Assembly: GCA_049519175.1 (NCBI GenBank)
Contig: JBEKQZ010000001.1
Location: 17,021 to 81,020 of the forward strand
Direction of reading: 5' to 3'
DNA length: 64,000 nt
Source of the DNA: Candidatus Levyibacteriota bacterium
GTDB lineage: Bacteria > Patescibacteriota > Microgenomatia > Levybacterales > UBA12049
Under the pieces are notes generated by a model, which saw only the letters and a list, made by a program, of their open reading frames with translations, had not been told where the DNA came from and did no database searches. Numbering within the stretch: position 1 is the stretch's first letter; every line of letters begins with the position of its first letter. A program made the translations under genes and the position numbers. Positions 23,853-26,562 of this stretch are shown one piece after another.

Positions 23853-24947
23853 CTATTTTTCCCAGGAAAATTCGGGGCGTCCAAAGTGTCCGTAGACCGA
23901 TGTAGCAAGATAAATTGGTCTTTGCAAATCTAGCTCATCAATTATACCCTGGACAGAAGTATCTAAAATTTCCGACATAAATTTTTTGATTACGCTAACC
24001 GGCGCCTTTTCGGTCCCAAAAGTTTCAATGTCTAACATCACCGGTTTTTTGGCACCGATAAAATAAGCCAGCCGGACTTCGGCTTTATCGGCTAATTTTT
24101 CTTTGACTACGTGTTTGGCCAAAAATCTTGCCGCATAAGCGCCGCTCCGGTCAACCTTGGTTGGATCTTTACCCGAAAATGCTCCGCCGCCGACTCTGGC
24201 ATAACCCCCGTAAGTGTCCACAATAATTTTCCGACCGGTCAATCCGGAATCACTGGCGGGTCCGGGCATGTGCCAAATTCCCGTCCCATTCACTATTAGA
24301 TTTTTTTCATTGATTTTAAAACCAAATTCGTCCAAAACTTTTTTAACCACTTCTTTATAAACAGCATGCTTAACTTGCGCGAGTGTCTTTTTTTCATCAT
24401 GTGGAACAGCAATAACAACTTGCAATACTTTGTAAGGAATGCCATTTTTGTATTCAATAGTAACTTGAGTTTTTCCGTCGGGGCGTAAAAAGGGGAGAGT
24501 TTTCTTTTTAACTTCATCCAGCTTTTGCGCCAACCGGTGCGCCATCATTATGGGTAGCGGCATCAAGCTTTTCGTTTCTTTACAGGCAAAACCATACATC
24601 ATTCCCTGGTCGCCGGCACCTTTAACCTTAACGCCTTTGGAAATTTCCGGTGATTGTTCATGAATATCAATTTCAATAGGGGATTGGTCGGTAAAATTAA
24701 AAAGAGGATTAGTATAACCTAAATCCCGAATTCTTTTTCTGGCAATTTTTTCGTAATCTACTTTGGCATTTGCGGTAATCTCACCGACAATAAGAACCTT
24801 GTTGAAAGCCACTAACGTTTCAACTCCAACTCTGCCTTGCGGATCTTGCTTTAAAACATCATCTAAAATAGCATCGCTAATGGAGTCGCAAATTTTGTCC
24901 GGATGTCCGGCGCAAACAGATTCGGATGTAAAAACAAAGTCGTTCAT
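23853..24947 (-). CDS. metK: S-adenosylmethionine synthetase
   Basis: MNDFVFTSESVCAGHPDKICDSISDAILDDVL...GGGAFSGKDPTKVDRSGAY.... The ORF-track start at 24989 is a TTG inside the riboswitch expression platform; ATG at 24947 is preferred. Confidence 0.93.
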   Translation of the reverse strand: MNDFVFTSESVCAGHPDKICDSISDAILDDVLKQDPQGRVGVETLVAFNKVLIVGEITANAKVDYEKIARKRIRDLGYTNPLFNFTDQSPIEIDIHEQSPEISKGVKVKGAGDQGMMYGFACKETKSLMPLPIMMAHRLAQKLDEVKKKTLPFLRPDGKTQVTIEYKNGIPYKVLQVVIAVPHDEKKTLAQVKHAVYKEVVKKVLDEFGFKINEKNLIVNGTGIWHMPGPASDSGLTGRKIIVDTYGGYARVGGGAFSGKDPTKVDRSGAYAARFLAKHVVKEKLADKAEVRLAYFIGAKKPVMLDIETFGTEKAPVSVIKKFMSEILDTSVQGIIDELDLQRPIYLATSVYGHFGRPEFSWEK

Positions 24948-24971
24948 AAAAAACCTCTCAAGTTCGAGAGG
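24948..24971 (-). terminator. Intrinsic terminator / SD-sequestering hairpin of the riboswitch expression platform
   Basis: CCUCUC-GAACUU-GAGAGG followed by UUUUUU and then AUG(metK). The 3' arm GAGAGG doubles as the only SD-like sequence. An identical GAGAGG inside the aptamer 3' region can alternatively pair with CCUCUC (antiterminator). Confidence 0.5.
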
Positions 24972-25080
24972 TTCTGATTTTCCCTTCAATTAATTCAGGG
25001 CTCATCTTCCTCTCGGAGTTGGCACCGTTATCTTTCGGTTGCCGGTTCGCCTCATCGGCGAAACACTCTTGATGATTGCT
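24948..25080 (-). ncRNA. S-box-like (SAM-I clan) SAM riboswitch candidate in the metK leader, aptamer plus expression platform
   Basis: Minus-strand RNA reads ...AUCAUCAAGAGUGUUUCGCCGAUGAGGCGAACCGGCAACCGAAAGAUAACGGUGCCAACUCCGAGAGGAAGAUGAGCC.... Blocks AUCAAGAG / CCGAUGA / CCGGCAACC / GGUGCCAACUCC / AAGAUGAGCC occur in canonical SAM-I order, with a P1 pairing of UCAUC/GAUGA. The P2 kink-turn block is absent. Confidence 0.55.
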
Positions 25081-25107
25081 CTATTAAACAGGAAATAACT
25101 TTTCTTG

Positions 25108-26562
25108 TCAAGTGATGCGCGGAAAAAGGGAAGCGAAAGATTTAATTTCGGTTTTCGTAAATTGTGCTTTTATTTTTGCGCTAGTTTCCGGCAAAAACGG
25201 TTCTAAAAGTTCTGCAATTTCTTCAATTTCATCAACCGCGTGTCCCAAAATGATATTAATCGGCCGTTTTAAATTTCCGGCGGGAGTTTTTAGCAGTTCC
25301 CAGGGTTTTTCTTCATTGATATATTGATCAACTTTGGTAATTTTTCCCCAAATCAAATTCAGTGTTTCGTTAAAGCGGTACTCGCTCAGCAGTTTTTTGT
25401 ATTTGTCAAAATCATTAATGACGTGGTGATTGTTTTCTGCTGGGCTTTGTCTAAAATTGGCCGTTTCGCAAAGTTTGGCCATTCTGGAAATTAAATTCCC
25501 TAAGCCATTAGCAAGATCGGCATTGTAGACTTCTTTAAATCGCTCAAGCGTAAAATCTCCGTCCGCGTCAATTGGAATTTGTGACAGCAGGAAATAACGT
25601 AGCGCTTCAACGCCGTATTCTTTGGTAAACTCAAACGGGTCAATTACATTACCAATGCTTTTACTCATTTTTTCGCCTTTAGTGTAAACAAATCCGTGAA
25701 TTAAGATTTCCTTTGGTAGCGGCAAGCCGGCCGACAACAGCATGGCCGGCCAGTAAACAGTATGAAAACGGTTAATGTCTTTGCCAATAACGTGCAAATC
25801 GGCGGGCCACCATTTCTGCCATTTTTCCTCATCCCAGCCGTAACCCACCCCGGTCATGTAAATATTCAAAGCGTCAAACCAAACATACATTACCTGATTA
25901 GCATCGCCCGGCACCGGCACGCCGACTCCTTGCGCGCGCTGCTTACTTCTGGAAACGCTAAAATCTTCCAGCCCTTGTTTAATAAAAGACAAAGCTTCTT
26001 CTCTTTTATTGCTTGGAGTAATCTTAAGTTTCCCCGACTCAATTAATTCAGTCAGTTTGTCCTGATAGTTAGATAACTTGAAAAAATAATTTTCTTCCGA
26101 AATTTTTTCCGGAGCTTTTTGATGCGTTGGACAAAGACCATTTATCAATTCTTTTTCGAGTTTAAAACCTTCGCAACCGACACAATACAATCCTGCGTAA
26201 GATTTTTTGTAAATGTCGCCGTTTTTAACACAAAGATTCCAAAATTTTTGTACGCCCGGCCAATGTTTTTGTTGGTCGGAACTTCTTTGAAAAACATCCA
26301 AGTGAACACCTAGTTTCTCATAGGCATTCTGCCAAAGCTTAGAATTGTCATCCAAAAATTGTTTAATCGGTATCCCTTCTTTTTGTGCCGCCTGAACGTT
26401 TTTTAGCGCGTTTTCATCGGCACCGGATAAAAGCAAAGTTTCATCGCCTAAAATCTGATGATATCTTCGGATGACGTCGGCTTGAAAATATTCCAAGGTA
26501 TGCCCGATATGCGGCTTACCGTTAACGTAAGGAATGGCGGTGGTAATATAAAATTTATTCAT
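25108..26562 (-). CDS. metG: Methionine--tRNA ligase
   Basis: ...AIPYVNGKPHIGHTLE... (HIGH) and ...EKMSKSIGNVIDP... (KMSKS). 484 aa. Confidence 0.95.
   Translation of the reverse strand: MNKFYITTAIPYVNGKPHIGHTLEYFQADVIRRYHQILGDETLLLSGADENALKNVQAAQKEGIPIKQFLDDNSKLWQNAYEKLGVHLDVFQRSSDQQKHWPGVQKFWNLCVKNGDIYKKSYAGLYCVGCEGFKLEKELINGLCPTHQKAPEKISEENYFFKLSNYQDKLTELIESGKLKITPSNKREEALSFIKQGLEDFSVSRSKQRAQGVGVPVPGDANQVMYVWFDALNIYMTGVGYGWDEEKWQKWWPADLHVIGKDINRFHTVYWPAMLLSAGLPLPKEILIHGFVYTKGEKMSKSIGNVIDPFEFTKEYGVEALRYFLLSQIPIDADGDFTLERFKEVYNADLANGLGNLISRMAKLCETANFRQSPAENNHHVINDFDKYKKLLSEYRFNETLNLIWGKITKVDQYINEEKPWELLKTPAGNLKRPINIILGHAVDEIEEIAELLEPFLPETSAKIKAQFTKTEIKSFASLFPRIT

Follow-up and report, generated by a model that had tools for sequence, protein, structure and literature searches.

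The SAM-I/IV variant family of riboswitches (Rfam RF01725) was described by Weinberg in 2010, with a loop-free P2 and the lack of a pseudoknot at the P2 tip as its hallmarks (PMC2864571). The consensus line of that work contains P1, P2, P3, and a hairpin located 3' of P1, and its SS_cons places an internal helix, often of 3-6 bp in the listed sequences, between P3 and the 3' strand of P1 (PMC2864571). A second structure line of the same alignment pairs the P3 loop with the 3' tail (PMC2864571). Likewise, Zhang (2019) ascribes to SAM-I/IV an undivided P2, an absent PK-1, and a P4 that is present, and to SAM-IV a P2a/P2b internal loop together with PK-1 and no P4 (PMC6890682). Crystal structures of the SAM-I/IV element env87 (4L81/4OQU) are cited in a passage of PMC8525861.

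An element with this architecture occupies the spacer between metG and metK on the minus strand of the window, i.e., the whole 64-kb stretch of DNA that was analysed. The spacer is exactly 160 nt long (25107..24948, minus strand), and the element in it is very probably a SAM-sensing riboswitch of the known SAM-I/IV class (RF01725) that forms the 5' leader of metK in this uncultured Patescibacteria (Microgenomates-type) genome, is transcribed from its own proposed promoter, and would work as an OFF switch. The features of the locus, from 5' to 3' along the minus strand, are as follows.

25108..26562, minus strand: metG (methionyl-tRNA synthetase), the upstream neighbour (Pfam tRNA-synt_1g, 1e-100)
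25110-25108, minus strand: metG stop codon TGA
25106..25111, minus strand: candidate -35 box TTGACA, overlapping the metG stop TGA (read from sequence; kept in homologs)
25083..25088, minus strand: candidate -10 box TTTAAT, 17 nt after the -35 box (read from sequence; kept in homologs)
25071..25075, minus strand: P1 5' strand UCAUC (Rfam alignment, MFE fold, covariation)
25063..25070, minus strand: J1/2 AAGAGUGU, with the conserved AAGAG of the SAM pocket (near-invariance in 17 leaders, RF01725 consensus)
25046..25062, minus strand: P2 hairpin UUCGCC-GAUGA-GGCGAA, with no internal loop or kink-turn (fold, covariation)
25021..25043, minus strand: P3, GGC-AA-CCG, loop L3 AAAGAUAA, CGG-U-GCC, with the AA/U bulge of the SAM-I-clan core (Rfam alignment, conservation, covariation)
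25030..25032, minus strand: candidate PK-2 5' strand GAU, in loop L3
25020-25018, minus strand: J3/4 AAC, directly before P4
25008..25017, minus strand: mini-P4 UCC-GAGA-GGA, 3 bp and a GNRA-type loop (MFE folds)
25009..25015, minus strand: antiterminator 5' strand CGAGAGG, overlapping the P4 loop and 3' strand (folding)
25002..25006, minus strand: P1 3' strand GAUGA (Rfam alignment, parse, fold)
24982..25000, minus strand: 3' hairpin after P1, CCCU-GAAUUAAUUGA-AGGG (fits the RF01725 stem without non-canonical pairs)
24976..24978, minus strand: candidate PK-2 3' strand AUC, in the tail AAAAUC
24950..24975, minus strand: terminator/start-region hairpin AGAACCUCUCG-AACU-UGAGAGGUUUU, about -12 kcal/mol (folding; palindrome flagged by the terminator scan)
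24965..24971, minus strand: CCUCUCG, shared by the terminator (core of its 5' arm) and the antiterminator (as 3' strand) (folding)
24948..24953, minus strand: U6 tract, with the metK AUG directly after it (read from sequence)
24947-24945, minus strand: metK start codon ATG
23853..24947, minus strand: metK, the gene that the leader would regulate, encoding a SAM synthetase of 364 aa (all three Pfam S-AdoMet_synt domains: N, M, and C)

The metK start codon is fixed by the N-terminus of the encoded protein, MNDFVFTSES. The initial annotation had quoted a series of motifs in SAM-I order from this spacer, and all of them are present on the minus strand at confirmed coordinates: AUCAAGAG (25073-25066), CCGAUGA (25058-25052), CCGGCAACC (25045-25037), GGUGCCAACUCC (25026-25015), AAGAUGAGCC (25008-24999), and CCUCUC (24971-24966) each occur once, GAGAGG being the exception with two copies (25014-25009 and 24959-24954). 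Its description of the aptamer was sound as to these motifs, whereas the 3' hairpin, the probable pairing between L3 and the tail, and the promoter had been overlooked. Relative to dinucleotide shuffles, the whole spacer folds with a z of -4.8, and this, like the covariance-model scores given below, lies well outside what chance would produce. P1 to P3 already appear in its MFE structure, as do the terminal hairpin and a small one that precedes the 3' strand of P1.

At gathering thresholds, an Rfam scan of the whole 64-kb window (1-64000) yielded no family at cut-off, so that RNA genes of annotated families, tRNA and rRNA included, are absent from it; the scan came back empty because the RF01725 score is one bit short of the gathering score. 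In a permissive scan of 351 nt (24850-25200), RF01725 (SAM-I/IV) was the best Rfam match; its alignment spans every model position (1-99) and scores 40.1 bits (E 2.9e-5), which falls 1.0 bit below the gathering score of 41.1 bits. Two weaker matches from the same clan, the lower-scoring SAM-I match among them, were dropped in its favour. The shortfall is attributable to the 12-nt P4 insert ACUCCGAGAGGA between P3 and P1, together with the long loops of P2 and of the 3' hairpin, all of which are scored as insertions by the Rfam 15 consensus. Other hits of the permissive scan (Phe_leader, isrJ, Twister-P5, XIST, and Six3os1; E 0.5-9) were rejected, as they reflect merely the terminator hairpin or runs of A/U.

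Homologous metK leaders score higher against RF01725, five of them above 41.1 bits (L003, 55.6; L011, 54.4; L001, 51.4; L004, 47.1; and L009, 46.4 bits), and the leader of L002 reaches 41.0 bits. A lineage covariance model, R1, was built from 15 of 17 distinct leaders, with the window and its near-twin L001 left out. Searched against both strands of the 64-kb window, it matched one site only, 25077-24967 of the minus strand (77.2 bits; E 1.9e-15). It matched nowhere in a further 481 kb, made up of 100 metK loci of other phyla. The riboswitch is genuine and conserved, it is predicted to control metK, and it is a new member of SAM-I/IV that lies 1 bit under the Rfam cut-off.

The core of the SAM-I clan is complete in the spacer, with the AAGAG of J1/2, a P3 of GGCAACC...GGUGCC with its AA/U bulge, and the A-U/U-A pairs of P1, and SAM would be expected to bind in the pocket common to the clan. 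P2 is a continuous 6-bp stem (UUCGCC/GGCGAA) closed by a 5-nt loop, in keeping with the minimal P2 without a kink-turn that had been proposed initially, and the P4 called vestigial at that time is predicted as a 3-bp helix in the MFE. The hairpin that follows P1 corresponds to P5 in SAM-IV numbering and is the sole 3' stem of the Rfam RF01725 model. PK-2 would consist of only three Watson-Crick pairs in the window (GAU/AUC), versus 4-7 in its relatives (clade range 3-7 bp). PK-1, which would join L2 with J3/4, was looked for and not found: L2 and J3/4 can pair over no more than 2 nt in the window, and over 1-2 nt as a rule, never beyond 3, in the 17 leaders.

The MetK proteins most similar to that of the window are encoded by Patescibacteria MAGs, namely two Patescibacteria (86-88% identity), a Levyibacteriota (77%), a Roizmanbacteria (61%), and a Shapirobacteria (52%). 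Across the homologous leaders, the model-based alignment has 88.9% of cells paired versus 70.4% in shuffles (0/500 reach the observed value), and the covariation score is 0.479 versus 0.150 in shuffles and at most 0.123 with slid partners. P1, P2, and P3 all covary. For example, P1 occurs as UCAUC/GAUGA, GCAUC/GAUGC, GUAUC/GAUAC, and GUGUU/GACAC, and a direct per-sequence parse finds it as 5 bp, of several pair types, in 17/17 leaders. In the MAFFT alignments A1 and A2, as in the CM alignment A3, the 3' hairpin is wrongly placed and the P1 3' strand is off by 2 nt in seven sequences, so the P1 cells scored as not paired are alignment artefacts. In each of the six P2 pairs of the model, both partners vary, and P3 has 99% of its cells paired, with CAACC and GGUGC invariant. 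Other core positions are conserved as well: in the 17 leaders, the G of AAGAG and the A that follows it (25067-25066) are invariant, the two preceding A's are nearly so, and the GG before CAACC is nearly invariant.

P4, the 3' hairpin, and PK-2 were taken from the per-sequence parse, which was fitted by eye and with RNAfold, and its pairing percentages are not independent evidence. An internal P4 hairpin is present in 11/17 leaders, which differ in its loop and in its extensions (AUCC/GGAU, UCUCC/GGAGA, and UCCU/AGGA). Its core pairs UCC/GGA show no compensatory change across the 17 leaders, so P4 is backed by recurrence with varying loops and extensions, which is weaker than covariation. The stem of the 3' hairpin varies in sequence in nearly every homolog while its pairing is kept (GUCC/GGAC, GUCGC/GCGAC, CCAAU/AUUGG, and CCUU/AAGG). 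Finally, PK-2 holds a fixed register around an invariant G-C throughout the clade, with compensatory A-U/U-A and U-A/C-G changes; cognate complementarity between L3 and the tail averages 4.06 versus 3.24 for permuted partners (0/5000 reach), and the register-anchored paired fraction is 0.662 versus 0.596 (35/5000 reach), falling to 0.31-0.44 when slid.

In the closest relative, L001, the P2 hairpin and the 3' hairpin are the identical 19 nt GGUCCGAAGAACAUCGGAC, 64 nt apart (approximately L001:1143-1161 and L001:1207-1225). This repeat, an internal duplication or conversion, has no obvious explanation and is absent from the window.

Downstream of the aptamer, the hairpin CCUCUC/GAGAGG followed by U6 immediately before the AUG was recovered as initially described, its coordinates and its fold being in agreement. 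The suggestion that the second GAGAGG serves as a competing antiterminator is supported by folding: as long as the 3' arm is still to be transcribed, the MFE of the nascent RNA is -40.2 kcal/mol and contains the CGAGAGG/CCUCUCG pairing, compared with -31.2 for the ligand-free aptamer fold, and the same arrangement recurs in L001, L086, L088, and L089. For the full leader, the MFE of -44.9 kcal/mol corresponds to aptamer plus terminator, while the best fold with the terminator 5' arm paired upstream (the antiterminator form) has -42.9 kcal/mol. By the energetics of these two folds, the leader is bistable, as would be expected if it turns transcription off.

In the proposed mechanism, bound SAM would hold P1 and P4, making the GAGAGG within P4 unavailable. 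The downstream CCUCUCG would then pair with UGAGAGG to form the terminator hairpin, followed by U6, and transcription would terminate just before the AUG, with the start region occluded in any read-through RNA. Without SAM, CGAGAGG (25015-25009) would instead pair with CCUCUCG (24971-24965), no terminator would form, and metK would be expressed. The net effect would be negative feedback on SAM synthesis. The terminator palindrome (24952-24973) is also terminator-like on the plus strand, where the stem is followed by CTGATTTTCC; no plus-strand gene ends there, and this site is probably a by-product of A-tract/U-tract symmetry.

The switching strand is not conserved among the relatives. The design in which GAGAGG of P4 opposes CCUCUC is shared by the window, L001, L086, L088, and L089, whereas five relatives (L002, L003, L081, L083, and L084) use an antiterminator formed by P1-5'/J1-2, to which the terminator 5' arm and loop are complementary. 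For example, the terminator 5' arm plus loop of L002 (CUCUCUUGAUGA) is perfectly complementary, over 12 nt, to the core UCAUCAAGAGAG of P1-5'/J1-2 at L002:2373-2384, and in L084 a 10-nt complement exists between the terminator arm and P1-5'/J1-2. L004 (2470-2482) and L011 (~2495-2502) have no terminator, and there the PK-2 3' strand overlaps the metK start codon (AACUUAUGG and UAUGA, respectively), such that a SAM-stabilised PK-2 would block initiation directly. It is tempting, if still tentative, to suggest that a single Patescibacteria clade combines a constant SAM-I/IV aptamer with three interchangeable platforms (a P4-strand antiterminator, a terminator that complements P1-5'/J1-2 and can be the exact complement of UCAUCAAGAGAG, and PK-2 over the start codon without a terminator), in a genome most of whose genes appear to be leaderless and free of Shine-Dalgarno (SD) sequences.

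The existence of translational control in this clade, as suggested by the start codons of the terminator-less L004 and L011 being buried in PK-2, invites the question of whether the hairpin in the window might chiefly sequester an SD (GAGAGG, 6 nt before the AUG) instead of terminating transcription. The terminator arm was initially taken to double as the metK SD, and a GAGG does lie within the 3' arm 6 nt before the metK AUG, with equal spacing in L001, L003, L083, L084, and L005. This claim is weakened by the 13-17 nt that separate GAGAGG from the AUG in L002, L081, L086, L088, and L089, and by the start signals of the genome at large: an SD-like motif precedes only 4/40 long ORFs of the window, whereas a -10-like (TATAAT-like) box is found 4-12 nt before the first ATG in 13/50 long ORFs, versus 4.5% at control positions, which points to leaderless genes. 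Moreover, an uninterrupted tract of U6 to U7 follows the hairpin, as in an intrinsic terminator. Control that is mainly translational is therefore unlikely at this locus. An SD role of the terminator 3' arm is unproven given so SD-poor a genome, and its GAGAGG is sufficiently explained by the pairing role.

Judging from these start-region motifs, translation in this genome appears to start for the most part on leaderless mRNAs or in an SD-independent way. TATAAT-like boxes lie near the gene starts at, e.g., 26562 (metG), 23106, 55447, 30241, and 36571, and metK, with its leader of ~130 nt, is an exception among the apparently leaderless genes.

Transcription of the leader most likely begins at a promoter of its own. 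The candidate sigma-70-type promoter immediately upstream of P1 has a perfect -35 box and a 5/6 match at -10, and it was missed by the promoter scan because the -10 rule of the latter requires an A at position 2. Almost every homologous leader has a cTTGACA/TTGCCA box at an equal distance, even where the gene upstream is not metG. Transcription would start at ~25077-25075, at the 5' edge of P1 and 1-3 nt before it.

The initial annotation had SAM gating read-through from metG into metK, and on this basis the main job of the element could be the control of a single metG-metK operon. It is correct that metG lies directly upstream on the same strand, that the 28 nt between the metG stop and the aptamer contain no terminator, and that metG also precedes the leader in L001, L002, and L081, the nearest relatives (and, with its end farther away, in L003 and L083). 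This synteny is confined to the closest relatives, and the promoter, with its 17-nt spacing just upstream of P1, is conserved both where no metG precedes the metK leader (L004, L005, and L086-L089) and where its end is distant (~940 nt in L003 and ~280 nt in L083). With a conserved promoter in place, gating of metG read-through is at most secondary or incidental, and it is quite improbable as the main function.

Returning to the SAM-I/IV assignment, the element shares with RF01725 the SAM-I-clan core, a P2 without an internal loop, the lack of a P2-tip pseudoknot, a short internal P4, the hairpin directly 3' of P1, and a SAM-metabolism gene downstream; a pairing of the P3 loop with the 3' tail (PK-2) is a probable further common trait. 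It differs in lying 1 bit under the gathering threshold, in a candidate PK-2 of only 3 bp, in a P4 3' strand that doubles as the antiterminator strand, and in its Patescibacteria host, the sequences of the original set having come mostly from marine metagenomes. With SAM-IV (RF00634), for which a cryo-EM structure is available (PMC6890682), it has in common the core, the 3' hairpin (P5), and probably PK-2 between L3 and the 3' tail, but it has an unbroken P2 and a P4, and it lacks PK-1.

Resemblance to the classical S-box (SAM-I, RF00162) is also considerable, extending to the ligand-binding core, the P1-P4 order, and a platform of terminator and antiterminator that acts on metK, as it does in Bacillota, although P4 is reduced to 3 bp here. 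J3/4 AAYUCC and J4/1-P1 AAGAUGAG are near-identical to the SAM-I consensus; specifically, GGUGCCAACUCC and AAGAUGAG match GGUGCcAAuuCC...agAU. A degenerate SAM-I with shortened P2 and P4 would fit these matches, as well as the four-way junction with P4 in the SAM-I position, and true SAM-I elements do precede metK in other CPR genomes (L010, 62.3 bits; L095). Such a reading is nonetheless very improbable, as the SAM-I score fell below that of RF01725 and was removed as the weaker clan member, the kink-turn of P2 is missing, the P2 loop offers J3/4 no complement for PK-1, and the 3' hairpin and the probable PK-2 are extra features that are foreign to SAM-I. Least tenable, and largely refuted, is the proposal of a compact new structural variant of the clan, distinct from SAM-I, SAM-IV, and SAM-I/IV, since a score below every Rfam gathering threshold and 12 additional nt between P3 and P1, which the RF01725 consensus of Rfam 15 lacks, are outweighed by close homologs above the RF01725 threshold, by an insert that is the internal P4 helix of the original SAM-I/IV-variant SS_cons, and by a loop-free P2 without a tip pseudoknot, a short P4, a 3' hairpin, and a probable L3/tail pairing, all of them part of the published architecture of RF01725, the best match.

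Among CPR metK leaders more broadly, the riboswitch class turns over. A classical SAM-I lies upstream of metK at L010:2314-2420, a weak SAM-I with a large insert at L006:2305-2451, and a kink-turn-bearing SAM-I-like element at L095:~1212-1330, while no recognisable SAM aptamer is found upstream of metK in L090, L092, and L094. The MAGs of L004, L005, L006, and L008 are titled "uncultured Gammaproteobacteria", yet their MetK proteins are 59-69% identical to the Patescibacteria protein of the window, and L004 and L005 share the SAM-I/IV leader family of the window; these labels are probably wrong.

Taken as a whole, the SAM-I/IV leader of metK leaves the known architecture of SAM riboswitches unchanged, and the practical points that follow from it are small. 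It is a true member of the class that is missed by the Rfam cut-off, since P4, an optional helix of the family, counts as an insertion in the present model. Among the papers searched, none dealt specifically with riboswitches native to CPR/Patescibacteria, and the host range is of minor interest. To the extent that sequence and predicted structure can tell, these ultrasmall bacteria would be among the organisms that regulate SAM synthetase by means of a riboswitch. Riboswitches were named in a 2024 review as candidate tools for inducible expression in CPR/Patescibacteria (PMC11665869). If the reading of one aptamer joined to three platforms is true, the clade would offer native, ligand-controlled switches that may be used in organisms now without inducible systems.
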